Source: an uncultured Verrucomicrobiae bacterium
GTDB lineage: Bacteria; Verrucomicrobiota; Verrucomicrobiia; Palsa-1439
DNA: 64,000 nucleotides
Assembly (NCBI GenBank): GCA_963812605.1
Contig: CAWEWF010000014.1
Coordinates: forward strand, 736,001 to 800,000
Direction: 5' to 3'
How positions within the stretch are numbered: position 1 is the stretch's first letter; each line of letters opens with the position of its first letter. This document shows positions 6,480 to 21,334 of this stretch, in pieces. Below the pieces are notes generated by a model. It saw only the letters and a list, made by a program, of their open reading frames with translations, had not been told where the DNA came from and made no database searches. Both the position numbers and the translations under genes were made by a program.

Positions 6480-6487
6480 CTCGATCT

Positions 6488-7588: not shown

Positions 7589-7593
7589 ACCGC

Positions 7594-10051
7594 ATGTCCT
7601 ACGCACCGGAACTCGAACGCCTCCTTGGTCAGCTCATTAGCGGCGATATCCTGTTCTTTCCGATCCGGCACCATAGTCCGGCCTGTGCCTGGCATCTGCA
7701 GCGGCTAATCGAGCAGTACCGGCGAACGTCGATCCTGGTGGAAGGCCCGGCCAACTTTACTCCGCTTATCCCGTTGATCTTACATCCGCGTACCCGCACT
7801 CCGTTTGCGGTCTACACTACTTACGTGGACACAACCCGTCGCGTCAACAAAAGCCTGGCTAAGGAGCGTGGTGATTTCGGTCCGGCGCGCTTTGCGGCCT
7901 ACTACCCCTTCTGTAACTATTCGCCGGAGTTGGTCGCCTTGCGCTCGGGAATAGCGGCGGGCGCGCGTCTGCAGTTCATCGATCTGGATTATCCTCGCCA
8001 GGTTCTCTCCGAGAAGCCAGCGGATGACCTTCCCGCAGCGCCCCGGGTCGATTCGTTGCTGGAGGAGCGCCATCTCAAACGCAGCGCGTATTTGAAACAA
8101 TTGGCCAAGCGGACCGGCTGTCGGGACCAGGACGAGTTGTGGGACCACTTGTTCGAGGTGAACTATGCCGAGGTTTCGACCGAGACTTTTGTAAAGAACG
8201 TCGCCGCCTACTGCTACATGGCGCGCCACGACTACCTGCCGGACGAACTGGCTGCCGATGGAACACGGGCGCGCGAACAATCAATGGCCAAAGCCATCCG
8301 GGAGGAACGGGCGGCGGGCCGCAGCGGAAACATCCTCGTTGTGACCGGTGGGTTTCACACCGTGGTGCTGCCTGATATGCTTCACAGTGAAACTGACGAG
8401 CAGAAGTTGCCGATACCCGACGGCGAGAGCATTTCGCCGGTACTGATCCGCTACAGCTTTGACCAACTCGATTCGCTGAACGGTTACGCCGCCGGCATGC
8501 CATCCCCGCACTATTACGATCAGTTCTGGGATCGGGCGATCGAAGGCCAGCCGCGCCCGTTCCTGGAAACCGCCGCGAACCTGCTTGTCGAGATCGGCCG
8601 GCTGACACGGGAGAAGTCATTGCCGAACGCGCTGTCCACCGCTGATGAAATCGCAGCCCTGGAGCAGGCGCGGCGCCTGGCGCTCTTGCGCGGTCACGTG
8701 GGCCCGACCCGCGAAGATCTGTTGGATGGCGTGCGCAGTTGTTTCGTCAAGGGTTCGATGGATGCCGAAGGCGCGGTCTTGATGGGGATCGCGCGGCACG
8801 TTCTCTCCGGCACGGCCATCGGCGATATTCCTCCCGAAGCCGGTGCGCCACCGTTGGTGGAGAACTTCCGCGCGGTGGCCATCGAACTGCGTCTCAACAT
8901 TACCGAGTCCGTGCGCCGCAAGCTCTCGCTGGACATCTACCGGAGCGTCGCACACCGGACAATCAGCCGCTTCTTCCATAGTTTGAGTTTTCTTCAAGCG
9001 CCCTTTGCGGCCCTGGTCGCCGGGCCGAACTTCGTGCAGGGCACGGGACTGCAGCGCCTCCAGGAACACTGGGATTACTTCTGGAGTCCACGCACGGAGA
9101 GTGCCCTGGTCGAAGCCTCGGTGTATGGTTCGACGGTTGAAGAGGCTGCCGCCAACCGACTGCGACAGGACGTCATCAATTTGGAGCAACAGGGCCGCGG
9201 CCGTAGCGCCCTGGAAGCGGTCAGGATGCTGGTCATGGCGTGCCGGATGGGGCTGCATCGGCATACGAAGCAGTTGCTCGATCTCATCGCCGGCAATGTC
9301 GTGGAGGATTCCTCTTTCGTGTCCGTCGTGCAGGCAATGAACCAGCTTTTGTTGCTGTGGCAGTCGCGCGAGCCGTTGGAAGCGCATCATCTGCCGGAGA
9401 TTCCATCCCTGTTGCGCATCGCCTACGAACGCGCGTGTTATCTCGTGCGCGGCCTTGCCAGTTCTCCGCAGGAAGAAATCTACAGCGTCCTCCAAGCCTT
9501 CAACACCATTCGCGAAGCGCTGGCCGCCGTGAAAGACGATCTTCTGGACGCGGACCTCTTCTGGCAGGAAGTGGCCGCGCTGCCCGCTATCCGCCCGGCC
9601 AATTCGGCGGTAGTGGGTGGCGCCGCCGGGCTCGTTATACGGCGACAACCGCCTTAGCGAGAAGATGTTGCTCGAAATGATGCTCGGTCATTTGGATGCA
9701 GCAACCTCCGACAACCGATCAAAGGTCGGATTCGTCATCGGGCTGCTGCGAACGTGCCGGGAGGTGGCCTGGCAACAACACGCGTTGCTCGAAGCCATCG
9801 ACCAACTTCTTGCCTCGTGGGACGAGCACGAGTTCATTCGTCTTTTGCCGGAGCTGCGGATTGCGTTCGCCGGCCTCACACCGCGTGAGACCGACCGCGT
9901 GGCCGGTGCCGTTGCCGGGCTACACGGGCAAAAGGATCTCGGTGAGTTGATTCATTACGACATCAACCAGGCCGCTTTGTCCTTTCATCTGAACGTCACG
10001 CAGGAAGTGCTGCGCAGTCTGGAGCACGATCAATTGGCTGACTGGGCATGA
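7594..10051 (+). CDS. DUF5682/YehM-like protein, split by a frameshift near 9640
   Basis: IRHHSPACA, LVEGP, VTGGFH and GYAAGMPSP motifs; C-terminal part continues in ORF 9617-10051. Confidence 0.8.
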
Positions 10052-11178
10052 GTGTGATCTCCTCCAATCCGTTGAGCCGGTGGCGGCTGGTGCTGGGCAA
10101 GTATGCCGCCGATCGCCTGCCGTCCGGGCTCTCGGAGACGGAACAACGCATCGAGACCGCTCTCGATTATCTGTACTCACGCGAGTATCGGGGCCGCGGG
10201 ATGCGCGAAAAGGAAAAGGAGCCGGGCTCACTGGATGCCTCCCAGTTGAATATCCCCGCCTGGCTCGCCGAAGTACGGGAACTTTTTCCGAAAGAGACCG
10301 TGGAAGTCATCGAGAAACACGCGCTCGACCGTTATGGCATGACGGAATTGGTCACCGACCGGGAGGTCCTGAAAAAGCTCCAGCCAAATCTCGATTTACT
10401 CAAGGCCATCCTCACGTTCCGCGGGCATATGAAAGAAGACGTACTCGCCGAAGCGCGGCGGCTGGTGCGGCACGTTGTCGAGGAGATCAAACTGAAAATG
10501 GAACCGGAAGTTCGACGGGCTTTGGCCGGCAAGCTCAATCGATTTCGGCATTCCAATCTCAAGGTTGCGCAGAATTTCGACTGGCGCGGCTCGCTGCGAA
10601 AGAACCTCAAGAATTATGACCCGATCCGGCAGAAGATCATAGTGCAGGACGTGCAATTCTTCTCGCGCAACGAACGCCGGCTGCCCTGGCACATTATCCT
10701 GTGCATCGATCAGAGCGGCAGCATGGCCAGTTCGGTCATCCACAGCGCCGTGATGGCGGGTATTCTGACGAGTCTGCCCATGCTACGGGTGAAACTGGTC
10801 GTGTTCGACACTTCGATCGTCGATCTCAGCGAGCATGTGGACGATTCGGTGGAAGTTCTGATGAACGTACAACTCGGTGGCGGCACGGACATCGGGCAGG
10901 CGCTGACCTATTGCGAAGGTTTGGTCGAGAACCCCAAACGCACGGTCGTGGTGTTGGTCAGCGACTTCGCCGAAGGCGCATCGCCGGCGCGGCTGCTGGA
11001 TACATGCCGACGCTTGCGCGAGGCCGGCGTCATCCTGTTGGGACTGGCTGCGCTCGACGAACAAGCCAACGCGTCCTACGACGTGAAGATGGCCGAACGG
11101 CTGGCTGAAATCGGCATGGAAATCGCCGCACTGACCCCGAAACGATTGGCCCAATGGCTGGCGAAAGTCATATCCTAG
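10048..11178 (+). CDS. VWA domain protein (YehP/CoxE-like)
   Basis: RWRLVLG N-terminus, MIDAS motif DQSGSM, LGGGTDI, VLVSDFAEG. Confidence 0.88.
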   Translation: MSVISSNPLSRWRLVLGKYAADRLPSGLSETEQRIETALDYLYSREYRGRGMREKEKEPGSLDASQLNIPAWLAEVRELFPKETVEVIEKHALDRYGMTELVTDREVLKKLQPNLDLLKAILTFRGHMKEDVLAEARRLVRHVVEEIKLKMEPEVRRALAGKLNRFRHSNLKVAQNFDWRGSLRKNLKNYDPIRQKIIVQDVQFFSRNERRLPWHIILCIDQSGSMASSVIHSAVMAGILTSLPMLRVKLVVFDTSIVDLSEHVDDSVEVLMNVQLGGGTDIGQALTYCEGLVENPKRTVVVLVSDFAEGASPARLLDTCRRLREAGVILLGLAALDEQANASYDVKMAERLAEIGMEIAALTPKRLAQWLAKVIS

Positions 11179-13257
11179 GCAAACTGCAAACGCTGCTGGT
11201 GTCGTTCGATGACAGAGCGTTTGAAGCGTTGGCGAGCCGTGGGCTGTTGCGACGCGCGCAGAAGGATTTGGAGGGCGGCGTTCCTGTCGAGATTACCGGC
11301 GATGTGCCCGCTGGTCTTGCGGTCAAGGTTGCCAATTTCACTGTTACACTTCCCGAAGCTGGTCCCGCGAAAGCCAAATGCACGTGTCGTTCCCCGGGCA
11401 TCTGTCAGCATATTCTGATGGCCTGCCTGTTTCTCCAACGCACCGCTGCACTCCCCAAGCAAGCTGACCTCCTGACAGTGGAAGCGACTACTACCGGACG
11501 CGGGCGCGATGAACTGTTGGCATTCACCGCCGAGCAACTCGGGCAATGGGCTAGCAAGCCGGCATTGCGGGCGGCGTTCGCATTGCTCGCGGCGCAACCA
11601 CCAATCCAGATGGAAACCAAAGGCGCGATCATTGTCCGTTTCCCTGATCACGGTGCGGAGTGCCGCTATGTTGCCGGTGGCGGATTGGATGGAATGGTTG
11701 TGACCGCACCGCAGGGTGCTTCCATGAAGTTTGCCGTGGCAGCGGTGTTGGCGTTTCAGCAGTCCCAGGGCCTCAAGCTACCCGAAGCCGCAACGGCGGC
11801 ACCTGCCCTGGCGGAAACCCGGGGCGCACCACGCACGCGAGATGAAGTCCTCGGTACCAGCCGTCAACTCCTTGAAGAGTCTGTGTGCGTCGGTCTTTCC
11901 CACCTCTCGATCTCATTTGAGCAGCGGTTTGCCACGCTGGCGGTTTCCGCGTTGGGAGTCAATCTTCCTCGATTGTCACTGGCGCTGCGCGGAATTGGCG
12001 ACGAGATTTCGCTGATCGTCAAGCGCGACGCGCAGGCTGATGAAGCGCGCCTGCTGCAATCAGTGTCACGCGCCCACGCACTTTGTCATGCTTTGCGTAC
12101 AACCATTCCCCCGCCACGAGCCGACTTGATCGGGTGGCATCGCACCCAATATGAGGAGGTCGGCCATTTGGAACTACACGGTGTCGCCGCCTACCCGTGG
12201 CGGACAAGTTCTGGTTACGAAGGATTAACGGTTCTATTTTGGGAGAACACAGCCTGCCCGGTGGTACTCGTGGTCGGAAGCCCGACCACGCCACCAAGCC
12301 GGCAGTTTCAATCCCCGCGACCGCTACAAACAAGAAAGTCCATGGCAGGGCGCGACCAGTCCTGACCAGCTTTCGCGCTCGAGCTTCAAGCTCATGCATG
12401 CGCGACGGAATCCCCTGGGCCGATTGTCTGCTTCTGCGAAGAGCCGAGCGTTGATCGTTGGCCCGACATCGCCCGTGACGCTCAACTTTGGCAATAAAAT
12501 CTTCTCGCACTGGAGTTCTCTCCAGCAGTACGCGTGCGAACTCTCGCCTATCGGTCTCGGGGAGTTCAATCCACTCGAGGAGATTGTGGTCTTGCAACCG
12601 GCAAACTGGGGCCGGCGACATTTCGATCAGGTTTCACAGACTTTCACCTGGGCCATCCTCGACGAAGACGGTGACGCGCTGACCCTGGAAGTGCGGTTTA
12701 ACGACCTGAACGACATCACCATCAAGTTTCTTGAGAATCTCAATCCCCGCACTCCGCGCGTGAGCGCGTTAATCGCCAAAATCTCGCGTACCGGCCTGAC
12801 AATCGCTGCGCAACCGATTTCGTTGGTCATGCCGGATGCGACGGGCACGGCGATTCTGAATCTTGGATTCGATGCCGCGCCCCGCCAGACGGTCCTGGCA
12901 AAGATAAAAGACCTGGTAAACACCATGGCTGACGAAGAGCCTCTGCTGGCTGATGAAGAGGGCGAGGCAGAGGAGTTCGTTCTTCTGGGTTCCAGCTTCG
13001 ATCAGCTCGTCACCAATCTGGAATCATTGCTTCAGAAGATCGCGGAACGCGGCTGCCGAACTCTTACTACGGTAGCCAGCCATGAACTGAGCGCGACCGC
13101 CGCAAACATGGAAGCCGCAGGGTTCAACATTCTTTCAAAAGCCATCCATCACTTGATCGGCAACACAAAGTGGCCAGCGCCGGATCTGCTCCAACTTCGC
13201 TACCTCTGCCTCGTTCATCGTCAGGCCGGTCAGCGAGTTGCTGCGCGCAGGACATGA
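11154..13257 (+). CDS. SWIM zinc-finger protein (YehQ-like), frameshifted near 12260
   Basis: CTCRSPGICQH SWIM motif; coding continues into ORF 12394-13257; start codon uncertain. Confidence 0.72.
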
Positions 13258-14057: not shown

Positions 14058-14131
14058 GCGCTTGTGGTTTAGCAGCAGAACACCGCGTTGCCAACGCGGA
14101 GGTGCGGGTGCGACTCCCGCCGAGCGCTCCA
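14058..14131 (+). tRNA. tRNA-Gly(GCC)
   Basis: Cloverleaf, acceptor GCGCTTG/CGAGCGC, U73, CCA encoded, T loop TGCGACT. Confidence 0.88.
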
Positions 14132-14142
14132 ATTCCAGTGCT

Positions 14143-14216
14143 ACGGCGTGCGCCAGTTCGCGCAGTTGAGTCTCCAAAACTCGGCGTGGTTGGGGCGGCA
14201 CCAACACGCCGTGCCA
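14143..14216 (+). tRNA. tRNA-Trp(CCA), degenerate D arm
   Basis: Acceptor ACGGCGT/ACGCCGT, G73, anticodon loop CTCCAAA, T loop GGCGGCA, CCA. Confidence 0.75.
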
Positions 14217-14220
14217 GTTT

Positions 14221-14296
14221 GGGGACACATGTGCCGTAGCGGCGAGACTGCCTTGCAAGCAGTTTGTGGTGGGTGCAACTCCCACTGTCTCCACCA
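14221..14296 (+). tRNA. tRNA-Ala(TGC)
   Basis: GGGGACA/TGTCTCC with G3:U70, A73, anticodon loop CTTGCAA, CCA. Confidence 0.85.
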
Positions 14297-14308
14297 GTTC
14301 GGACCCGC

Positions 14309-14399
14309 GGGTGATGTTCCGGTCAACGGTCTGTAGAACCGTGGTCGCTAAAACAAGGTCGGAAGACGACGAGTGGAGCGTTACCACCATCACCCACCA
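14309..14399 (+). tRNA. tRNA-Tyr(GTA)-like, no D arm, enlarged variable arm
   Basis: GGGTGAT/ATCACCC, A73, CCA; anticodon arm ACGGT-CTGTAGA-ACCGT; T loop AGCGTTA. Confidence 0.7.
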
Positions 14400-14406
14400 G
14401 TTTCAC

Positions 14407-14482
14407 GACTCGGAAGAGGAACAGCAGACTCGCCTGCCTGTCTAGCGGGAGATAACGGGGGCAGCACCCGTCCGGATCGCCA
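14407..14482 (+). tRNA. tRNA-Asp(GTC)
   Basis: CCTGC-CTGTCTA-GCGGG, G73, T loop GGCAGCA, CCA. Confidence 0.8.
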
Positions 14483-14487
14483 TTTCG

Positions 14488-14562
14488 CGGGCACGAGGAA
14501 GATAGCAATCCGCCCGGTTTGGAACCGGGAGACACTCGGGGCAGAACCGAGGTGCCCGACCA
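14488..14562 (+). tRNA. tRNA-Pro(TGG)
   Basis: CGGGCAC/GTGCCCG, A73, CCCGG-TTTGGAA-CCGGG, CCA. Confidence 0.87.
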
Positions 14563-14569
14563 ATTTCCA

Positions 14570-14645
14570 CTCCCCGTAGTTCAGATTATAGAATGCCGAG
14601 CTTCTAACTCGGAGGTCGCAGGTGCGAGTCCTGCCGGGGAGACCA
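14570..14645 (+). tRNA. tRNA-Arg(TCT)
   Basis: CTCCCCG/CGGGGAG, CCGAG-CTTCTAA-CTCGG, CCA. Confidence 0.88.
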
Positions 14646-14653
14646 GTTTTGAT

Positions 14654-14728
14654 TCCATCGTGGGATAACAGTAGTCCACCGTCCTGTTAAGGCGAGAGGT
14701 CGTGGTGCGAATCCACGCGATGGAGCCA
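14654..14728 (+). tRNA. tRNA-Asn(GTT)
   Basis: TCCATCG/CGATGGA, G73, anticodon loop CTGTTAA, CCA. Confidence 0.87.
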
Positions 14729-14729
14729 G

Positions 14730-14821
14730 GGAGTCCAGGCCGATACAAGCTGGCGGCACTCGTCTTGAAAACGAGATCTGGCGCAAGCCAGAGGCGGGAG
14801 CATTACCTGCGGACTCCGCCA
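14730..14821 (+). tRNA. tRNA-Ser(TGA)
   Basis: GGAGTCC/GGACTCC, G73, long variable arm TCTGGC-GCAA-GCCAGA, CCA. Confidence 0.88.
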
Positions 14822-14853
14822 ATTCAGAAACAACAACCGAAGGAGATAAGGCC

Positions 14854-15033
14854 ATGTACACCACCAAGACAGAAACGGTCGCTCGGATCCCCATCCAACG
14901 CTGGCGAAATACGCGCTTTGTCGTACCGGTGCGGGAAACGCGACGCCATCGGTCGCTGGCAATACCGGATCCGCCACACCGGAAGAGGACGCGTCGCGGA
15001 TCATTCACCGAAACTGACGCGCGCGCCCCATAA
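14854..15033 (+). CDS. Small Arg-rich protein (59 aa) inside the tRNA array
   Basis: AAGGAG Shine-Dalgarno at 14840-45; MYTTKTETVARIPIQRWRNTRFVVPVRETRRHRSLAIPDPPHRKRTRRGSFTETDARAP*; too short for the ORF track. Confidence 0.5.
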   Translation: MYTTKTETVARIPIQRWRNTRFVVPVRETRRHRSLAIPDPPHRKRTRRGSFTETDARAP

Positions 15034-15075
15034 CGCGCATTGTTTACCATGCCTGTCGCAAACGATGCGCCCTTC

Positions 15076-15149
15076 CCTTCCGTAGCTCAAGAGCAGAGCG
15101 GTCGGCTGATAACCGACAGATCACGGAGCGTTACCGTGCGGAAGGACCA
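15076..15149 (+). tRNA. tRNA-Ile(GAT)
   Basis: CCTTCCG/CGGAAGG, GTCGG-CTGATAA-CCGAC, T loop AGCGTTA, CCA. Confidence 0.87.
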
Positions 15150-15151
15150 AC

Positions 15152-15226
15152 GGCTCGGAAGCTCTCGGAGGAGAGCGTCCCGCTGAAAACGGGAAAGGGG
15201 CGGTGCAACTCCGTCGCGAGCCACCA
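15152..15226 (+). tRNA. tRNA-Phe(GAA)
   Basis: TCCCG-CTGAAAA-CGGGA, A73, CCA. Confidence 0.86.
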
Positions 15227-15235
15227 CTTTGTTTT

Positions 15236-15309
15236 GTTCTCGAAGTGTAAGAGATCTGCACGTCCCGTTGCGAACGGGAAGGTTCGGGGTGCGAATCCCT
15301 GCGAGAACA
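15236..15309 (+). tRNA. tRNA-Arg(GCG)
   Basis: GTTCTCG/CGAGAAC, TCCCG-TTGCGAA-CGGGA; CCA not encoded. Confidence 0.83.
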
Positions 15310-15338
15310 CTTTACCCCGAATTCTTTCGGGCCAGTTT

Positions 15339-15415
15339 GCCTCTGTGGCCGAGACTGTCCAGGCACGGCTTTCGTAAAGCCGACCACATCGGTGCAATTC
15401 CGATCGGAGGCCCCA
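15339..15415 (+). tRNA. tRNA-Thr(CGT)
   Basis: GCCTCTG/CGGAGGC, CGGCT-TTCGTAA-AGCCG, CCA. Confidence 0.85.
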
Positions 15416-15422
15416 GTTTGCT

Positions 15423-15497
15423 GGTGACCGTGGTGTAAGAGCAGCACCGCAGACCGTGAATCTGCAGGAGCGGGTGTAAGTCCCGTCGGTCGCCCCA
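15423..15497 (+). tRNA. tRNA-His(GTG)
   Basis: G-1:C73 pair, GCAGA-CCGTGAA-TCTGC, CCA. Confidence 0.87.
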
Positions 15498-15505
15498 ATT
15501 CGTTC

Positions 15506-15578
15506 GTCCCGCGAGGGAGCCAGTGAACCCGCCTGTCTGCAAAACAAGCACTGTGCGGTGCGACACCGCAGCGGGACT
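15506..15578 (+). tRNA. tRNA-Cys(GCA)
   Basis: GTCCCGC/GCGGGAC, U73, anticodon loop CTGCAAA; followed by TCA. Confidence 0.8.
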
Positions 15579-15588
15579 TCAATTTCAT

Positions 15589-15663
15589 GCCTCCAAAGAA
15601 TAGACAGCGATTCGCGTCATCGGTAATGACGACAGCACAGTGCGATTCTGTGTGGAGGCTCCA
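15589..15663 (+). tRNA. tRNA-Thr(GGT)
   Basis: GCCTCCA/TGGAGGC, CGTCA-TCGGTAA-TGACG, CCA. Confidence 0.85.
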
Positions 15664-15670
15664 ATTCGAT

Positions 15671-15749
15671 GCGGCAGTGATGTTGAACAGAATGAGCATG
15701 GCTGCCTTCCAAGCAGCTCGTGTGGGTGCGACTCCCATCTGCCGCACCA
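15671..15749 (+). tRNA. tRNA-Gly(TCC)
   Basis: GCGGCAG/CTGCCGC, GCTGC-CTTCCAA-GCAGC, CCA. Confidence 0.86.
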
Positions 15750-15755
15750 CTTCGA

Positions 15756-15829
15756 CGCGGGTGAGTAGCGTGGCACTACAGGAGGCTCATACCCTCCAGA
15801 CGCCGGTTCAATTCCGGCACCCGCTACCA
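15756..15829 (+). tRNA. Initiator-like tRNA-Met(CAT)
   Basis: C1/U72 mismatch, GGAGG-CTCATAC-CCTCC; the only array tRNA with a canonical TTC T loop, paired with a GG D loop. Confidence 0.82.
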
Positions 15830-15836
15830 ATTTTCT

Positions 15837-15911
15837 CGCTCCGTAGCACAAACGCAGTGCGCCGGTTTCATACGCCGGAGATTGCCAGTGCGAACCTGGC
15901 CGGAGCGACCA
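15837..15911 (+). tRNA. Elongator tRNA with CAT anticodon (Met; Ile2 not excluded)
   Basis: CGCTCCG/CGGAGCG, CCGGT-TTCATAC-GCCGG, CCA. Confidence 0.8.
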
Positions 15912-15915
15912 GTTC

Positions 15916-15990
15916 GGGTCGCAAGCATTGCAAGCGATGCAGCGGATTCTTACTCCGCAGAACACGGGGCGGTACCGTGGCGGCCCACCA
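15916..15990 (+). tRNA. tRNA-Lys(CTT)
   Basis: GGGTCGC/GCGGCCC, GCGGA-TTCTTAC-TCCGC, T loop GGCGGTA, CCA. Confidence 0.84.
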
Positions 15991-15998
15991 ATCCATTC

Positions 15999-16073
15999 GC
16001 CTGCGTGGCCGAAAAGTCAGGCACCGGTTTTGTAAACCGACCCATGCAGGTGCGACTCCTGCCGCAGGCTCCA
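15999..16073 (+). tRNA. tRNA-Thr(TGT)
   Basis: GCCTGCG/CGCAGGC, anticodon loop TTTGTAA, CCA. Confidence 0.86.
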
Positions 16074-16079
16074 ATTGAT

Positions 16080-16154
16080 TGCCTCGTGGTGTAACCAGCG
16101 GCACATCCGTCTCTGAAACGGAAAGTCCGGGTGCAATTCCAGGCGAGGCAGCCA
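16080..16154 (+). tRNA. tRNA-Gln(CTG)
   Basis: U1:A72, G73, TCCGT-CTCTGAA-ACGGA, CCA. Confidence 0.87.
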
Positions 16155-16161
16155 TCGTCAC

Positions 16162-16236
16162 GCCGCACTAGCCCAATGCAGAGGCACCAGTCTTAGAAAC
16201 TGGACAGTCCTGGTGCAAATCCAGGGTGCGGTACCA
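16162..16236 (+). tRNA. tRNA-Leu(TAG), short variable loop
   Basis: CCAGT-CTTAGAA-ACTGG, 5-nt variable loop, A73, CCA. Confidence 0.85.
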
Positions 16237-16240
16237 ATTC

Positions 16241-16316
16241 GCTCCCGTAGCTCAAAGTATAGAGCGCCCGGCTTCGAACCGGGAGGTTGCAGGTGAGATT
16301 CCTCCCGGGAGCACCA
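16241..16316 (+). tRNA. tRNA-Arg(TCG)
   Basis: GCTCCCG/CGGGAGC, CCCGG-CTTCGAA-CCGGG, T loop TGAGATT, CCA. Confidence 0.86.
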
Positions 16317-16325
16317 ACGTCCGAA

Positions 16326-16397
16326 GCTCGTGTAGCCCAACGCAGAGGCAGTCGGCTTAAACCCGATCCAGTGCCGGTGCAATCCCGGCCACGAGCA
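16326..16397 (+). tRNA. tRNA-Leu(TAA), short variable loop
   Basis: GCTCGTG/CACGAGC, GTCGG-CTTAAAC-CCGAT; followed by CCG. Confidence 0.84.
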
Positions 16398-16402
16398 CCG
16401 AT

Positions 16403-16478
16403 ACCGACGTAGCCCAACAGCAGAGGCACCAAGCTCAAACCTTGGCCAGTGTGGGTGCGACTCCCTCCGTCGGTACCA
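16403..16478 (+). tRNA. tRNA-Leu(CAA), short variable loop
   Basis: ACCGACG/CGTCGGT, CCAAG-CTCAAAC-CTTGG, CCA. Confidence 0.85.
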
Positions 16479-16484
16479 ATTCAC

Positions 16485-16577
16485 GGAGCATGAACCGGGC
16501 AAGCGAACCGGGACTGTTTGCTAAACAGATCGACCCGCATCCAGCGGATTGAGGCGCAAGCCCTCCGTGCTCCGCCA
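16485..16577 (+). tRNA. tRNA-Ser(GCT)
   Basis: GGAGCAT/GTGCTCC, G73, anticodon loop TTGCTAA, long variable arm, CCA. Confidence 0.82.
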
Positions 16578-16587
16578 GTTCCTTCTC

Positions 16588-16676
16588 CCGCCCGTAGTTC
16601 AAAGAGAACCGTCCGCCTTATAAGCGGAATCGCACTGGATGAGTGCCAGGCCTCGGAGCGTTACCGAGCGGGCGGA
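16588..16676 (+). tRNA. tRNA with TAT anticodon (Ile UAU) and a long variable arm
   Basis: CCGCCCG/CGGGCGG, TCCGC-CTTATAA-GCGGA, variable arm GCACT-GGATG-AGTGC; no CCA. Confidence 0.8.
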
Positions 16677-16677
16677 T

Positions 16678-16755
16678 GGCCGTGATCGCGAAGCAGCTCC
16701 AGCGACCTGTCTTTCAAGCAGGATCCAGCGGGTGCGAGACCCGCCACGGCTGCCA
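16678..16755 (+). tRNA. tRNA-Glu(TTC)
   Basis: GGCCGTG/CACGGCT, G73, CCTGT-CTTTCAA-GCAGG, CCA. Confidence 0.85.
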
Positions 16756-16757
16756 AC

Positions 16758-16834
16758 GGACTCGAAGCCACAGCAGACCGGCACCGGACTTTTAATCCGG
16801 CAGGGTGAGGTTGCAACTACCTCCGGGTCCACCA
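16758..16834 (+). tRNA. tRNA-Lys(TTT)
   Basis: GGACTCG/CGGGTCC, CCGGA-CTTTTAA-TCCGG, CCA. Confidence 0.86.
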
Positions 16835-16860
16835 ATTTCGCTCGTATTGCCCAATGCGTT

Positions 16861-16934
16861 TGCCGAGTCGTCCAATAGTAGGACATCTCGCTTTGAACGA
16901 GAAGATCGTGGTGCGAATCCACGCTCGGCAGCCA
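16861..16934 (+). tRNA. tRNA-Gln(TTG)
   Basis: TGCCGAG/CTCGGCA, G73, TCTCG-CTTTGAA-CGAGA, CCA. Confidence 0.88.
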
Positions 16935-16939
16935 ATTCC

Positions 16940-17013
16940 CGCCCGATGGTGAAATAGGATCACGCCTGGCTTACATCCAGGAATCCGGGGAGCATAACCT
17001 CGTCGGGCGACCA
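16940..17013 (+). tRNA. tRNA-Val(TAC)
   Basis: CGCCCGA/TCGGGCG, CCTGG-CTTACAT-CCAGG, T loop AGCATAA, CCA. Confidence 0.86.
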
Positions 17014-17023
17014 GTTTGATGAT

Positions 17024-17109
17024 TTGCGGAAGTGAGACGGGAGTTCCTTCGGAGCTCAATCACCGAGCACTGGCCTGTTAAGCCAGCCTCCCGGCAGGAT
17101 ACTCCGCAA
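17024..17109 (+). ncRNA. Y RNA-like gene 1 (D arm plus GTT anticodon arm module)
   Basis: Ends pair (TTGCGGA/TCCGCAA); shares the AGTGAG..GGAGTT.CTTC scaffold; lies upstream of TROVE. Confidence 0.7.
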
Positions 17110-17123
17110 TGCTCTTTCGGCGA

Positions 17124-17255
17124 TTTGAGGTAGTGAGATCGGAGTTACTTCGCATGACAAGCGAGAGGTTGCCGGTTCGATTCCGGTCGCGGCCAGCAAT
17201 GGCTGCGTAGCTCAATGGTAGAGCGCTTACGTCTCTGATCGATTTTCTCCTCAAA
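17124..17255 (+). ncRNA. Y RNA-like gene 2 (YrlA-type permuted tRNA-like domain)
   Basis: Scaffold stem plus T arm GCCGG-TTCGATT-CCGGT, loop-closed acceptor CGCGGCCA-GCAA-TGGCTGCG, D arm GCTC-AATGGTA-GAGC. Confidence 0.82.
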
Positions 17256-17258
17256 ACT

Positions 17259-17358
17259 TTTTGGGGTAGTGAGATTCGGGTTACTTCATGGTCCTGTTGG
17301 TTCGAATCCAACCTTCAGCCTTCCGGCTGATGTTCCCGGGTCGGTTTACTCCTCAAAA
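17259..17358 (+). ncRNA. Y RNA-like gene 3 (T arm plus acceptor-like hairpin)
   Basis: Same scaffold; GTTGG-TTCGAAT-CCAAC, then TCAGCC-TTCC-GGCTGA. Confidence 0.75.
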
Positions 17359-17380
17359 CAATCCAAACACAACCAAATCC

Positions 17381-17477
17381 GTGAGGCAGTGAGGTCAGGG
17401 CTACTTCGAAACTGGGATGGGTGAAAACCCCACCAGTCTGGCCGCAAGGCCGTTTCCCCGGCCGGTTTACTCCTCAC
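17381..17477 (+). ncRNA. Y RNA-like gene 4 (two-hairpin module)
   Basis: Same scaffold GTGAGG-CAGTGAGGTCAGGG-CTACTTC...CCCCGGCC-GGTTTACT-CCTCAC; ends 21 nt before the TROVE start codon. Confidence 0.7.
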
Positions 17478-17498
17478 ACAACCTGAAAGGAGCACGCA

Positions 17499-18931
17499 AT
17501 GAGATTCAACCTGCTCAAGAGACGCCGCACGGGCGCCGATACCGTCAACTTCGCTGGAGGCGAGGCGTTCACGGAATCCCCAAAGCTGGAACTGGCGGCG
17601 CTAATGTTGACCGCGACACTGCAGAACGACTTTTATCGTTCCGCCAACGCCACTGCTACGCGCTTGAAGGAACTCATCGGCAAGATCGACGACAAGAAGT
17701 TTGTCGCCAAGACTGCGCTCTACGCCCGCAACAAGGCGGGGATGCGTTCGGTTTCACATCTGACTGCCGGTGAGTTGGCCCGCACCGTGAAGGGGCAGCC
17801 GTGGACTGCGAAGTTCTACGAACAAGTGGTCCGCCGCCCGGATGACGCGTTGGAAATCCTCGCGTACTACCTGGCGATGCACGGTCGGCCCATCCCAAAC
17901 GCGTTGAAGAAGGGCCTGGGCGCTGCCTTGGCGCGTTTCGACGAGTACCAGTTGGCCAAGTATCGCAAGAGCGCTGCGGAAATCTCGCTCGTGGACGCGG
18001 TAAACCTCGTTCACCCGAGACACACCGAGGCATTGAAGAAGCTGGTCAACGGCACTCTCGCGCCGGCAGAAACCTGGGAAACCAGACTGACGGAGGCGGG
18101 TGCGGCGGCGGAGTCGGAAGACGAACTCGCCGAGTTGAAGAAGGACGTGTGGACGAAGCTGATCGAGAGTCGCAAGCTCGGTTACTTCGCGCTGTTGCGC
18201 AACCTGCGCAACATTCTCCAAGCCGCGCCTGAGTCAATGGATGCGGCCATCACAATGTTGACGGATGAGAGGCTCATCCGGCGCTCGTTGGTGCTGCCAT
18301 TCCGTTATCCTCACGGCGCTCGAAGCAATGCAGGCGACTAAGCCTGCCGAATGTCAGCAAGGTACTCGTTGCTCTCAGCGAGGCGGTGGACAAGTCTCTT
18401 GTTAACGTGCCGCAGTTCGATGGCAAGACGCTGGTTGCGCTGGATGGCTCTGGTTCGATGCAGGGGCGTCCCCTGAAGATCGGCTCGCTGTTTGCCGCAA
18501 CGCTGGCGAAGGCCAACGATGCGGACGTAATGCTGTTCAGTAACGACGCGAAGTATGTCTCCCTGAACCACCGTGACAGCACGTTGACGCTGGCGCAGTG
18601 GCTGGAGAGCCAGGCCCAGTCGGCGGGAACCGACTTCCATTGCATCTTCCAGACGGCGAAGCGCGGTTATGATCGCGTGATCATCCTGTCGGATATGCAG
18701 GGTTGGATCGGTCACTACGCTCCGACCAAGACCTATGAGGCGTACAGGAGACAGTTCGGGGTTGACCCGAAGGTTTTCTCGTTCGATCTCAAGGGTTACG
18801 GCACGTTGATGTTCCCCGAACGCAGCATCTATTGTTTGGCCGGCTTCTCCGACAAGACAATGGACATGCTGAAGTTCCTCGACTCGGATAAGTCCGCATT
18901 GCTTCGAGAAATCGAGGCCGTCGAGTTGTAA
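17499..18931 (+). CDS. rsr: Ro60/Rsr TROVE-domain RNA-binding protein with C-terminal VWA; two apparent 1-nt insertions near 18309 and 18340
   Basis: VNFAGGEAF, YARNKAGMRS, FDEYQLAKY, ETWET, YFALLRNLRN, LPFRY, DGSGSM, GTDF, IILSDMQ. Confidence 0.88.
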
Positions 18932-18935
18932 CCTC

Positions 18936-18978
18936 GGGAGCTTCCTGACCACGGTTGGGAAGCTCCCTTCTCTTTCCA
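18936..18978 (+). terminator. Hairpin or possible terminator after TROVE
   Basis: GGGAGCTTCC...GGAAGCTCCC followed by TTCTCTTT. Confidence 0.55.
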
Positions 18979-19063
18979 GTAATTTGAAGCATCCGGCAAC
19001 GACAACCGAGCTGCGTCGTCTGTCATTACACAAATCAACCCGCTCGGAGAAAGGAGCCACATC

Positions 19064-19307
19064 GTGAGATTCAACATCCTGAAGAGACGCAGCACGAACG
19101 CCGATTCCGTCAACTTTGCCGGCGGGGAGGCATTTACCGAGTCGCCAAAGGTGGAACTGGCGGCGCTGATGTTGGGCGCAGGCAACCAGCTTGGTCTTGG
19201 GCAACCACCATTGACATTGGTTGCGTTTTCACTAATCCGCAATCGCGAAGTTCCTCGACTCGGACAAGACGGCGCTGCTGCGAGAAATCGAAGCGGTGGA
19301 GTTGTAA
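19064..19307 (+). pseudogene. Internally deleted second TROVE copy
   Basis: MRFNILKRRSTNADSVNFAGGEAFTESPKVELAALML matches the TROVE N-terminus; 19248-19307 encodes KFLDSDKTALLREIEAVEL*, matching its C-terminus. Confidence 0.85.
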
Positions 19308-19380
19308 ACAAACCCGGTGGAGGAGTAGCTTGAAGGCGTGCTCCTCCATCCCATTGAATGATAGGAAAGGAAACACCAAC

Positions 19381-20550
19381 ATGAAGCCAGTAATCTTCGG
19401 TCAGCATGACGAGGCGACGATCCGGCAGATCGAAACCTGCCTGGCGGCGGGCGGCGAAAAGGCCGTGCTGTGCGCGGATGGCCACAAGGGCTACGCCCAA
19501 CCAATCGGCGGCGTGGTCGCCTACAAGGACAAGGTGTCGATCTCGGGTGTCGGTTTCGACATCGCCTGCGGCAACCTTGCCATCCGCACCGACGCCATGG
19601 AAGCCGACATCCAGCCAAAGATGGACGCGATCATGGACGACGTGGTGCGCCACATCTCGTTCGGCGTCGGCCGCACGAACAAGAACAGGGTTGACCATGA
19701 ACTGTTCGACGACGAAGCGTGGAACATTCGCGCGATTGGCCAACTGAAGCACCTGGCGCAGGAGCAGCTCGGCACGGTCGGCAGCGGCAACCATTATGTG
19801 GATGTCTTTGCCGATGAGGGTGGCGTGGTCTGGGTCGGCGTGCACTTCGGTTCGCGCGGGCTCGGTCACCGGTCGGCGACGCACTTCCTGAAGGTTGCGG
19901 GTGGAAAGGACGGCATGGATGTACCACCTACCGTTCTCGATCTGCGGGTTCAGGTCGGTCAGGATTACCTCGCGGCGATGAGGCTGGGCGGTCGTTACGC
20001 CTACGCCGGCCGCGAGTACGTCGCCCGTTTCGTCGTGCGTGAGATTCTCCAGGCGAACATCGTGGAAGAAGTTCACAACCACCACAACTTCGCCTGGGAA
20101 GAAGAACACTACGGCGAAAAGTTCTGGGTCGTGCGCAAGGGCGCTACGCCGGCGTTTCCCGGTCAAAAGGGATTCGTCGGCGGCAGCATGGGCGACGACG
20201 CCGTAATCATCGAGGGCATTGACACGGCAAGATCGCGCGAGGCCTTGTTCTCGACCGTCCACGGCGCTGGACGCGTCATGTCGCGCACGGCAGCCAAGGG
20301 CAAGTTCGAGAACGTCGGCGGAAAGCGTATCCGCCAACCCGGGCGAATCCGTCATGATGAAATGATGGCCTGGCTCAAGAACAAGGGCGTCGTCCTGCGA
20401 GGTGGCGACCTTGACGAAGCGCCCCAGGCCTATCGTCGCCTGACGGATGTACTCGCGGCACAGGGTCGCACGATTCGCGTTCTCCATACGCTCCGCCCGC
20501 TGGGCGTGGCCATGGCCGGACGAAACATCGTCGATCCCTACAAGGACTGA
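19381..20550 (+). CDS. rtcB: RtcB RNA ligase
   Basis: ADGHKGY, GFDIACG, GTVGSGNHY, HFGSRGLG, HNHHNFAW, VVRKGATPA, GGSMG, STVHGAGR, DEAPQAY. Confidence 0.95.
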   Translation: MKPVIFGQHDEATIRQIETCLAAGGEKAVLCADGHKGYAQPIGGVVAYKDKVSISGVGFDIACGNLAIRTDAMEADIQPKMDAIMDDVVRHISFGVGRTNKNRVDHELFDDEAWNIRAIGQLKHLAQEQLGTVGSGNHYVDVFADEGGVVWVGVHFGSRGLGHRSATHFLKVAGGKDGMDVPPTVLDLRVQVGQDYLAAMRLGGRYAYAGREYVARFVVREILQANIVEEVHNHHNFAWEEEHYGEKFWVVRKGATPAFPGQKGFVGGSMGDDAVIIEGIDTARSREALFSTVHGAGRVMSRTAAKGKFENVGGKRIRQPGRIRHDEMMAWLKNKGVVLRGGDLDEAPQAYRRLTDVLAAQGRTIRVLHTLRPLGVAMAGRNIVDPYKD

Positions 20551-20617
20551 AGGCAAGCTGCCCGCGGTTGGAGCGATGTCAGCCACATCCTGTGCATTGT
20601 TCCAACCTCCCCTTTTC

Positions 20618-20692
20618 GCTCCCATAGCTCAACAGACAGAGCCTTCCTCTCCTAAGGGAAAGATTTGGGTGCAACTCCTGATGGGAGCACCA
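20618..20692 (+). tRNA. tRNA-Arg(CCT), array type (T loop TGCAACT)
   Basis: GCTCCCA/TGGGAGC, TTCCT-CTCCTAA-GGGAA, CCA. Confidence 0.86.
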
Positions 20693-20746: not shown

Positions 20747-21334
20747 ATGAACGACATACTAAATAAAGCGACGGTATTGGTACTGAATCGCAACTGGCAG
20801 GCCATCAACGTGCGCACGCCGGCAGAAGCGTTTTGCCAGATGGCAATCAACGCGGCAACCGGCTTGGACATCGAGGGCGAGGATCGCATGGGTCCCGTCC
20901 CGTGGGATGGGTGGCTCAAGCTGCCGATTCGGCCCCACGATAACGCCGTCGGCACACCACGCGGACGTATTCGTGTGCCCACGGTCATCGTGTGCGCGAA
21001 CTACGCGTGGGTGCCCCAGAAGCGACCGAAGCTCTCCGCGCGGAACATCCGCGAGCGCGACGGTCACCGCTGCCAATACACCGGCAAAGTATTGCGCGCG
21101 GAAGAGGGCAGCATTGACCACGTCCTTCCCCGCTCACGCGGCGGGAAGACGACATGGGAGAACTGTGTCTTCGCCAGCAAGCAGATCAATACAAAGAAAG
21201 GCAATCGACTGCCCCAGGAAGCTGGGCTGCAACTCTTGGCGCGTCCCCGAGTACCGCGGGCGCTGCCGGTGACCCTGACCATTCGCAATGCCCACGGTAT
21301 TCGAGACTGGAAGCCCTTTCTGGGTGATTCATGA
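20747..21334 (+). CDS. HNH endonuclease (McrA-like)
   Basis: VLVLNRNWQA, RDGHRCQYTG, SIDHVLPRSRGGKTTWENCV...NTKKGNRLP. Confidence 0.9.
   Translation: MNDILNKATVLVLNRNWQAINVRTPAEAFCQMAINAATGLDIEGEDRMGPVPWDGWLKLPIRPHDNAVGTPRGRIRVPTVIVCANYAWVPQKRPKLSARNIRERDGHRCQYTGKVLRAEEGSIDHVLPRSRGGKTTWENCVFASKQINTKKGNRLPQEAGLQLLARPRVPRALPVTLTIRNAHGIRDWKPFLGDS

Follow-up and report, generated by a model that had tools for sequence, protein, structure and literature searches.

A long tRNA gene array with a covarying A18-G55 elbow beside a putative RNA-repair module in an uncultured Verrucomicrobiae bacterium

The tRNA array and its elbow

Few tRNA bases are as invariant across all life as U55, present as pseudouridine-55, and G18, and the pair they form is part of the textbook L-shape. 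Here we describe a long tRNA gene array from an uncultured Verrucomicrobiae bacterium in which both positions are changed together. The DNA analysed, called the window throughout, is the whole stretch of 64,000 nucleotides at positions 736001-800000 of a contig from an assembly of 4.17 Mb in 15 contigs with 58% G+C. It holds 33 tRNA genes, all on the plus strand: 32 form the array proper at 14058-17013 and the last one, a tRNA-Arg(CCT), stands at 20618-20692. The gene set was established by our own cloverleaf parse, hand-checked and including one scanner blind to loop sequence, together with ARAGORN in its default and relaxed modes and Rfam.

The cloverleaf parse places a G at position 55 in 32 of the 33 tRNAs (31 of the 32 within the array proper). 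The lone U55 belongs to an initiator-like tRNA-Met(CAT) at 15756-15829, which has a mismatch at 1:72, a T loop TTCAATT and a D loop with GG, and is the sole member with a canonical elbow. The canonical combination of U54-U55-C56-R57-A58 with G18 G19 is otherwise foreign to the array: U55 occurs in 1 of 33 tRNAs, and the D loops of the 32 G55 tRNAs contain AG without GG in 26 cases, AG as well as GG in 4 and neither in 2, GG alone being found in 0 of 32. Positions 54 and 58 are T/A in 23 tRNAs, A/T in 5 (Tyr, Ser-TGA, Ile-GAT, Ile-TAT and Val), G/G in 4 (Trp, Asp, Pro and Lys-CTT) and C/A in 1 (Ser-GCT). Position 56 is C in 31 members, U in His and A in Arg-TCG, where the D loop reads AAAGTATA. 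The CCA end is encoded by 29 of the 33 genes, those without it being Arg-GCG, Cys, Leu-TAA and Ile-TAT. An earlier note on this DNA, made from the sequence alone, had tallied by hand the 32 G55 tRNAs and the four 54/58 classes, and the parse reproduces both tallies exactly; its remarks that AG mostly replaces G18G19, that the initiator-like tRNA alone keeps TTC and GG, that Arg-TCG combines A56 with a GT D loop and that 29 genes encode CCA were likewise recovered.

This elbow is a property of the array and not of the genome. Outside the array, 46 of the 47 ARAGORN calls from the same genome read TTCRA and none contains GTGCRA; a TruB gene is also encoded by the host. In the window, the T-arm motif GGTGCRANNCC occurs 18 times where 1.9 are expected, a number reached in 0 of 100 shuffles, and 17 of the 18 matches lie inside the array, which excludes a chance origin of the enrichment.

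The T54/A58 class makes up most of the set. Following the initial tRNA-Gly(GCC) at 14058-14131 (T loop TGCGACT, D loop AGCAGCA, U73, CCA encoded), it comprises tRNA-Ala(TGC) at 14221-14296 (TGCAACT; of ambiguous register, with the ARAGORN start at 14223), tRNA-Arg(TCT) at 14570-14645 (TGCGAGT; D loop AGATTATA, in which the 19:56 partner is not clear), tRNA-Asn(GTT) at 14654-14728 (TGCGAAT, D loop AACAGTA), tRNA-Phe(GAA) at 15152-15226 (TGCAACT), tRNA-Arg(GCG) at 15236-15309 (TGCGAAT), tRNA-Thr(CGT) at 15339-15415 (TGCAATT), tRNA-His(GTG) at 15423-15497 (TGTAAGT, with G-1 and C73), tRNA-Cys(GCA) at 15506-15578 (TGCGACA), tRNA-Thr(GGT) at 15589-15663 (TGCGATT) and tRNA-Gly(TCC) at 15671-15749 (TGCGACT, a D loop of 12 nt, A73). 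Beyond the initiator-like gene, it continues with a CAT-anticodon tRNA, elongator Met or Ile2, at 15837-15911 (TGCGAAC, D loop AAACGCA), tRNA-Thr(TGT) at 15999-16073 (TGCGACT), tRNA-Gln(CTG) at 16080-16154 (TGCAATT, with the same acceptor stem as the host tRNA-Gln(CTG)), tRNA-Leu(TAG) at 16162-16236 (TGCAAAT), tRNA-Arg(TCG) at 16241-16316 (TGAGATT), tRNA-Leu(TAA) at 16326-16399 (TGCAATC, only CC encoded), tRNA-Leu(CAA) at 16403-16478 (TGCGACT), tRNA-Glu(TTC) at 16678-16755 (TGCGAGA), tRNA-Lys(TTT) at 16758-16834 (TGCAACT), tRNA-Gln(TTG) at 16861-16934 (TGCGAAT, D loop AATAGTA) and the separate tRNA-Arg(CCT) (TGCAACT, D loop AACAGACA).

The A54/T58 class consists of a Tyr(GTA)-like element at 14309-14399 (AGCGTTA), possibly degenerate, with its D arm almost missing and a variable region of 29 nt, and of tRNA-Ser(TGA) at 14730-14821 (AGCATTA, long variable arm), tRNA-Ile(GAT) at 15076-15149 (AGCGTTA), the TAT-anticodon tRNA at 16588-16676 (AGCGTTA, A73) and tRNA-Val(TAC) at 16940-17013 (AGCATAA). 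The G54/G58 members are tRNA-Trp(CCA) at 14143-14216 (GGCGGCA, with an irregular D arm and no 8-9 linker), tRNA-Asp(GTC) at 14407-14482 (GGCAGCA), tRNA-Pro(TGG) at 14488-14562 (GGCAGAA) and tRNA-Lys(CTT) at 15916-15990 (GGCGGTA), and the single C54/A58 gene is tRNA-Ser(GCT) at 16485-16577 (CGCAAGC, long variable arm).

Several of these genes are hard to detect or depart from the cloverleaf. ARAGORN in default mode called 18 of the 33 and missed 15, and 18 of the 33 reached the gathering score of Rfam RF00005 (29 bits) in the whole-window scan, two further members exceeding it in other scans (Thr-CGT with 45 bits, Lys-TTT with 39 bits); the tRNAs below default thresholds rest on relaxed ARAGORN and our own parse. 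The Rfam scores of array tRNAs range from 21 to 63 bits, whereas host tRNAs score as high as 79. All anticodon loops have 7 nt, and 29 of the 33 genes have 7/7 acceptor pairs with at least 4/5 T-stem pairs. Four members are irregular, namely the "Tyr" element at 14309, Trp at 14143, Gly-TCC and Ala. With the bacterial discriminator-base rules as a yardstick, nearly all members match, the exceptions being Gly-TCC (A73) and Ala because of its register: the G3:U70 pair is seen only with a gene start at 14221, and the linker then has 5 nt. The earlier claim that identity elements are intact was thus slightly too strong; it stands for His G-1/C73 and nearly all the discriminators, and does not for the window copies of Ala, Gly-TCC and "Tyr".

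Three features of the array are side observations. The three tRNA-Leu genes (16162-16478) all have a variable loop of 5 nt, where bacterial tRNA-Leu is normally long-armed, and these short genes keep A73 and the Leu-type D arm. In the bacterial comparison loci described below, the short form is found in 87 of 109 G55 Leu genes and in 32 of 36 U55 Leu genes, long arms being kept by Ser and Tyr. The TAT tRNA has an arm of 23 nt, unexpected for an Ile-type anticodon. Finally, a very arginine-rich open reading frame (ORF) of 59 aa lies inside the array at 14854-15033, with a Shine-Dalgarno-like AAGGAG element, and no relatives of it were found in the other 235 loci.

The elbow covaries across bacterial and phage arrays that keep their identity elements

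Comparison loci were collected with a paired motif in which two neighbouring G55 T arms are both succeeded by CCA; it has three matches in the window, and 100 shuffles gave no match. The motif was found in at least 119 stretches of the GTDB collection, with one genome per species, and in at least 116 viral stretches of IMG/VR. Among the 119 bacterial matches listed, 82 are from Verrucomicrobiota and 37 from other groups, which include Planctomycetota, Myxococcota, Acidobacteriota, Gemmatimonadota, Chloroflexota, Cyanobacteria and Steroidobacteraceae. Some of the listed matches are noise, since one isolate-derived verrucomicrobial match (L003) proved to be a chance match without tRNA. When 401 genomes were sampled from the phylum to which the window belongs, the motif was present in 10 (G000 included), all from the window's class, with two families contributing 7 of 35 and 2 of 26 genomes; the reversed control pattern had 0 matches in the same 401 genomes. 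On the viral side, one locus (L209) comes from a virus of 205 kb that bears direct terminal repeats, has a CheckV completeness of 100% and contains 18 tRNA hits and a terminase match; all 14 tRNAs called by ARAGORN in this locus carry G55. The window array is collinear with an array on a Verrucomicrobiae chromosome (L074) and with three viral ones (L183, L134 and L195) at 66-92% identity, and the elbow is kept across them despite this divergence. When cultured carriers were sought by similarity to the array, only single tRNA-sized hits came up, in five phage records and one plasmid; in two of these five phages, Phaeobacter MD18 and Klebsiella vB_Kpn_3, every tRNA has U55.

Loci differ widely in how far they have adopted G55. 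Of those with at least 6 tRNAs, 70 of 164 have G55 in at least 80% of them, and in these G55-rich loci it is carried by 773 of 811 tRNAs of all identities. Another 73 of the 164 have less than 50% G55, although all were selected for two adjacent G55 genes. Among the exceptions in the 70 G55-rich loci, Met-CAT leads with 8, while 27 other CAT tRNAs have G55, so that retention of U55 by the initiator is a tendency and no rule. The share of G55 also varies with identity: in viral loci, Ser-GCT has 2 TGC against 31 TTC loops, and Cys 30 against 11.

To follow the elbow positions, we used the default ARAGORN calls from the 235 loci (1129 tRNAs from bacterial and 1458 from viral loci), of which 2415 passed stem filters and 2266 were unique. 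Position 18 tracks position 55 in this set: an A accompanies G55, and a G accompanies U55 or C55. The same holds for position 19 and position 56. Each T-loop class is accompanied by its own D loop: TGC by AG, TTC and TCC by GG, TTT by GA, TTA by GT, TTG by GC, TGG by AC or AT, and TGA mostly by AT. Among unique tRNAs, the 657 with D loops of 7 nt provide a fixed register, in which positions 18-19/55-56 read AG/GC in 334, GG/TC in 196 and GG/CC in 16, and the crossed forms AG/TC and GG/GC were each found once; the 62 tRNAs in rows combining GC, GA, GT or CG with GC have for the most part a Leu-type D arm with a stem of 3 bp, in which the register is off by one. The mutual information of position 55 amounts to 0.62 bit with position 18 and to no more than 0.04 bit with every other D-arm column, and that of position 56 peaks at position 19 (0.13 bit). 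At 54:58, the 2266 tRNAs are T:A in 2055, A:T in 97, C:A in 53, A:A in 36, G:G in 12 and other combinations in 13.

A gap-free alignment of 133 tRNAs joined 4 from the window to 129 of 265 unique ones having a D arm of 15 nt and a variable loop of 5 nt; the 129 comprise all 33 of rarer class, 48 of 158 TGC and 48 of 74 TTC tRNAs. Paired bases fill 93.3% of the stem cells, against 56.8% after shuffling, with 1145 double changes, a stem pairing that is partly there by construction because the set was called by ARAGORN. The 19:56 pair is formed in 83.5% of the tRNAs and 54:58 is U:A in 112 and A:U in 13; as the count scores A:G as unpaired, it informs on these two pairs and not on 18:55. Relatedness was controlled with a tree of the 265 tRNAs built without the D and T loops, 254 rows of which have both traits. 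Because only one close G55/U55 pair was available (at most 12 differences: Leu-GAG of L021 versus L013, with 8 differences including 18 and 55), we turned to independent pairs. Position 55 differs in ten pairs that lie on supported branches, and the change at position 18 goes along in 9.9 of them on average and against in 0 (sign test, p ~0.002). The tree is poorly resolved and implies at least 50 changes at the fewest. The earlier note had expected covariation at 18/55, 19/56 and 54/58 across homologous arrays and had taken its disappearance in larger alignments as a sign against its reading. It holds, with 0.62 bit at 18:55 and 2 crossed forms in 657, and far from vanishing it persists in 2266 tRNAs and in the 10 independent pairs.

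The G55 tRNAs also look fit to be charged. At least 1256 unique G55 genes are present in the comparison loci, for 20 of 20 amino acids and in both the bacterial and the viral collections, and the class retains its aminoacylation identity elements. The G3:U70 pair is found in 31 of 31 Ala genes, and the discriminator base is G in Asn (63/64), Asp (34/35) and Trp (17/17), U in Cys (72/72), and A in Leu (169/172), Lys (40/40), Pro (66/66), Tyr (29/29) and Val (41/42). The 1256 genes have U33 in 1149 cases, R37 in 1223, G53:C61 in 1244 and R57 in 1254. Among G55 genes, a CCA end is encoded by 672 out of 742 in the bacterial collection and by 575 out of 614 in the viral one. Like those of the Anabaena L-array, the array tRNAs would be processed, charged and used in translation. 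The view expressed in the earlier note, of a selected alternative tertiary structure and not decay, is supported by the tracking of 18/55 and 19/56, by the independent pairs and by the identity elements that are kept.

The genomic neighbourhood of the array

On the 3' side of the array, all on the plus strand, follow four Y-RNA-like units in tandem (17021-17480), a Ro60 gene with TROVE and vWA domains split over two frames (17499-18931, the frames being 17499-18341 and 18386-18931), a partial second Ro60 copy with gene start and end (19065 to ~19308, read by eye, the end being approximate), an RtcB RNA ligase identified by Pfam (19330-20550), the tRNA-Arg(CCT) and an HNH endonuclease of ~195 aa (20747-21334). 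The four units have common 5' and 3' boxes, and one of them, at 17125-17257, matches YrlA of Rfam with 40.6 bits, below the gathering score of 69 bits. The tRNA-like module of this unit has a canonical GGTTCGATTCC T arm and a GG D loop, unlike the adjoining G55 tRNAs. For the proteins, the TROVE match has an E of 2.9e-19 and the Ro60 vWA match an E of 3.8e-6 (27.4 bits, for a cut-off of 27.7), on separate frames, and RtcB an E of 2.5e-62, so that a module of TROVE protein and RtcB is present in the window. The split of Ro60 may reflect a genuine frameshift or, in this metagenome-assembled genome, a mistake of assembly.

On the 5' side, close to the array, a cluster of five genes at 2727-12365 encodes a DUF4132 protein with HEAT repeats, a MoxR-type AAA_5 ATPase, a DUF5682 protein, a CoxE-like VWA protein and a SWIM zinc-finger protein, and resembles MoxR-VWA conflict-type systems. 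Besides the 33-gene set, a host-type tRNA-Leu(TAA) with a canonical elbow is located on the minus strand at 2401-2491, 11.5 kb upstream of the array. The genes downstream of the array module are of ordinary housekeeping type. We considered whether the window copy is part of a prophage and rejected this reading, as Pfam applied to 20 flanking ORFs found no phage structural or integrase genes; since the flanks are without phage structural genes, the window copy is a chromosomal island.

The same neighbours recur elsewhere. An HNH protein of ~200 aa is the commonest protein neighbour of the arrays, adjoining 68 of 236 loci, bacterial and viral alike. The only recurring neighbours of the 236 loci that Pfam names are HNH, TROVE, RtcB and SPFH, with five more cluster representatives lacking a Pfam hit, and no dedicated G55 enzyme stood out among the 4152 clustered ORFs of these loci. 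RtcB lies beside 19 of 70 G55-rich and 3 of 73 U55-rich loci, and Ro60 beside 18 and 7 respectively, counts that are confounded by lineage and by the 8-kb limit of the loci.

Interpretation, alternatives and known systems

We think it probable, with room left for other readings, that the region is a horizontally spread L-array of functional spare tRNAs with an A18-G55 elbow, placed beside an RNA-repair module. It would comprise a near-complete, chargeable spare tRNA set adjoining a module for RNA repair and quality control made of the Y-RNA-like units, Ro60, RtcB and the HNH nuclease. The structural part of this reading is the one we hold with high confidence: A18-G55 very probably replaces the G18-pseudouridine-55 pair. 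The tRNAs would keep the normal L shape and exchange only this tertiary pair of the elbow, the outer pair 19:56 being maintained as G19:C56 or as another Watson-Crick pair where position 56 varies. Their T loop, UGCRA or else CGCRA, AGCRU or GGCRG, would represent the YGNRA form of the T-loop motif. A G at the second T-loop position is presumably tolerated by the loop fold, because the array loops fit the YGNRA of riboswitches, and bases 18 and 55 should touch, as G18 and pseudouridine-55 do, because G55 is strictly paired with A18 and single-change forms are nearly absent; the exact geometry of the A18-G55 contact is what we infer from this. RNase P, the ribosomal L1 stalk and T-boxes stack on 19:56, and these shape-reading partners should still fit, because that pair is preserved. 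TruB makes pseudouridine-55 of tRNA; a G55 removes its substrate and makes pseudouridine-55 impossible, so that the array tRNAs would be independent of TruB. In the A54 and G54 variants, moreover, no T54 can form.

A more tentative part of the reading concerns insulation. The changed elbow may shield the array tRNAs from factors that read U55, pseudouridine-55 or G18, a possibility to which we give somewhat less than an even chance. Insulated from tRNases that cut the T loop, the array could refill the tRNA pool once housekeeping tRNAs are damaged. The neighbourhood (RtcB, Ro60) and the literature on L-arrays suggest that the set is called upon after damage to the normal tRNA pool, and an elbow without the T-pseudouridine dinucleotide could protect because a known toxin cuts there, so that evasion of enzymes or toxins reading the T loop is a plausible conjecture. 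A bolder version, which we regard as unlikely, would see in A18-G55 a tRNA architecture private to phages and mobile arrays, which renders a whole tRNA set orthogonal to any attack directed at the universal T-pseudouridine-C loop. Such an attack could come from a host defence, from a competitor toxin cutting or blocking canonical elbows, or from the element's own nuclease, for which the HNH protein is a candidate; in this last case the element would disable host tRNAs and translate with its immune set, RtcB and the Ro60/Y RNA pair handling the debris.

Several observations weigh against the reading of the region as a functional, rewired spare set. A:G is a non-standard pair. The 235 comparison loci were picked by the G55 motif itself, so that covariation can be read from them and the natural frequency of G55 cannot, and sets called by ARAGORN are biased to good cloverleaves, its default mode under-calling G55 genes. 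A simple scan, uninformative for this phylum, found no sigma-70-like promoter upstream of the array. Because 4 of the 33 genes are irregular and Ro60 is split, part of the window copy may be decaying. The only characterised natural G55 tRNAs that we found, the staphylococcal tRNA-Gly, are kept off translation, as passages of PMC13443448 describe. Finally, G55 and U55 are frequently mixed in arrays, above all in viral ones, and this mixing, together with the dependence of G55 on identity, fits a tolerated, near-neutral alternative equally well. Such an alternative would hold that A18-G55 is equivalent to G18-pseudouridine-55 and is tolerated under the weaker or shorter-term constraint on mobile and phage tRNAs, its near-fixation in Verrucomicrobiota arrays coming from common descent and homogenisation between neighbouring genes, with no evasion involved. 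Besides the 73 of 164 loci below 50% G55 and the viral Ser-GCT and Cys counts, it can invoke the homology of the window array to other G55-rich arrays, by which few founding events are needed. It has to explain, however, why none of the 47 tRNA calls made outside the array in the same genome has G55, and the 773 of 811 G55 tRNAs in G55-rich loci would require parallel double changes in ~30 genes. With single intermediates in only 2 of 657 tRNAs, each switch would cross a fitness valley, and many switches are suggested by the at least 50 changes on the poorly resolved tree. We consider near-neutrality somewhat unlikely, if the most serious of the alternatives.

Two further explanations question whether the genes serve translation at all. 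The tRNAs might be charged and kept off the ribosome, or act as decoys, toxin sponges feeding Ro60/Y RNA and RtcB. The presence of these neighbours agrees with such a role, as does the fact that the only described natural tRNAs lacking both U55 and G18G19 are non-proteogenic (in passages of PMC13443448, and here L056). A set spanning 20 amino acids with an initiator-like tRNA speaks against it, and so do the retained U33, R37, discriminators and G53:C61, the covarying 18/19 partner of the T loop, which the staphylococcal tRNAs lack, and the complete 205-kb phage, whose array of this type fits a role in translating phage genes. We find this explanation improbable by a wide margin. Still less credible is the view that the genes are decaying pseudogenes with odd loops as mutational debris. 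Low Rfam scores (21-63 bits, with host tRNAs at up to 79), the 15 of 33 genes missed by default ARAGORN, the four irregular members and the split Ro60 could be cited in its favour, yet it is already contradicted by covariation specific to 18:55 and 19:56, by the pairing of 93.3% of stem cells with 1145 double changes in 133 aligned tRNAs, by the independent pairs and by the retained identity elements; a design kept across arrays only 66-92% identical is likewise not what decay would leave.

A large natural class of tRNAs that swaps the 18:55 pair for A18-G55, with at least 1256 unique genes for 20 amino acids in bacteria and phages, should surprise tRNA specialists, because near-universal positions are affected. 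It provides a natural experiment on the purpose of pseudouridine-55, of TruB and of the 18:55 contact. The rewired elbow explains why standard finders under-call these genes (18 of 33 by default ARAGORN), and it offers a simple sequence marker of mobile tRNA sets. It also raises the testable idea that the arms race of phage, toxin and host over tRNAs extends from the anticodon loop to the elbow, and it may provide a natural scaffold for orthogonal tRNAs.

How does this elbow compare with what has been described? No paper was found on G55, U55G or A18-G55 in tRNA arrays or phage tRNAs, a search that did not extend to the sequence tables in the supplements of L-array papers. Characterised G55 tRNAs are known from Staphylococcus, where the tRNA-Gly(UCC) of non-proteogenic type is aminoacylated, excluded from EF-Tu and serves cell-wall synthesis, according to the passages on it in PMC13443448. 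Our motif scan caught these known cell-wall genes as well, as four tandem tRNA-Gly(TCC) genes of Staphylococcus petrasii (L056, 3979-4317) whose T loops read TGCAAAT, TGCAAGT or TGTAAGT and whose D loops are without GG. Like the array tRNAs, they are natural bacterial tRNAs with G55 (in TGCAAAT or TGCAAGT). Unlike them, they are without an 18/19 partner (D loops CTTT or CTCTT), serve one amino acid and have an extra 31-38 pair, whereas the array tRNAs keep A18 and G19 in covariation with the T loop, cover all identities and do not show the staphylococcal features. The staphylococcal tRNA-Gly is a different solution. A closer likeness in loop sequence is found in riboswitches: the T loops of FMN and cobalamin riboswitches have the consensus YGNRA (UGNRA 88.7%, CGNRA 10.9%), and tRNA T loops are set apart from it by the U at the second position of UUCRA, as far as stated in the part of the preprint concerned (bioRxiv 10.1101/2022.12.26.521914). 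The TGCRA and CGCRA loops of the array share with YGNRA the G at the second position and U or C at the first, while riboswitch loops, unlike those of array tRNAs, dock on T-loop receptors inside the riboswitch.

With respect to evasion, a contact-dependent toxin tRNase cuts the T loop between T and pseudouridine, in the account given in passages of PMC9086364. For the array, the parallel lies with mobile-element tRNAs that differ from the host at a site read by a nuclease. Phage tRNAs reportedly escape anticodon nucleases through altered anticodon loops (van den Berg et al. in 2023, Burman et al. in 2024). That case concerns the anticodon loop, with escape shown experimentally, whereas in the array it concerns the elbow and escape is only deduced. 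The neighbourhood recalls the rsr-yrlA-rtcB RNA repair operon of Salmonella, which reportedly (Hughes et al. in 2020) encodes a Ro60 orthologue, a Y RNA with a tRNA-like module and RtcB. The window likewise has Ro60, Y-RNA-like units and RtcB side by side; it differs in that these are joined to a 33-gene tRNA array, that Ro60 is split and that the Y-RNA match is sub-threshold.

The nearest relatives remain the L-arrays, for which the abstract of Tran et al. 2016 (PMC4758250) requires 20 tRNA genes or more and a density of 2 or more per kb, a definition within which the 32 genes in 2956 bases of the window fall. According to Santamaria-Gomez et al. 2021 (PMC8421152), L-arrays spread horizontally and are co-regulated with rtcB; the Anabaena array is silent in normal growth and induced under translational stress, and 23 of its 26 tRNAs are aminoacylated in vivo. 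Verrucomicrobia is among the phyla credited with L-arrays in this literature. The rewired 18:55 pair is absent from the main text of PMC8421152 and of PMC4758250, the supplements, perhaps with tRNA sequences, lying outside this check; because neither main text mentions G55, U55, G18, the T loop or the elbow in this sense, the pair is not part of the published description of L-arrays as the main texts give it. In other respects the likeness is close: the window has dozens of head-to-tail tRNA genes for nearly all amino acids, an rtcB neighbour and a supernumerary set next to a canonical housekeeping set, and its kind occurs patchily (10 of 401 genomes), in line with horizontal transfer, and is carried by viral contigs and a complete phage. 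By the density definition and by this patchy distribution, the window array belongs to the known L-array kind.

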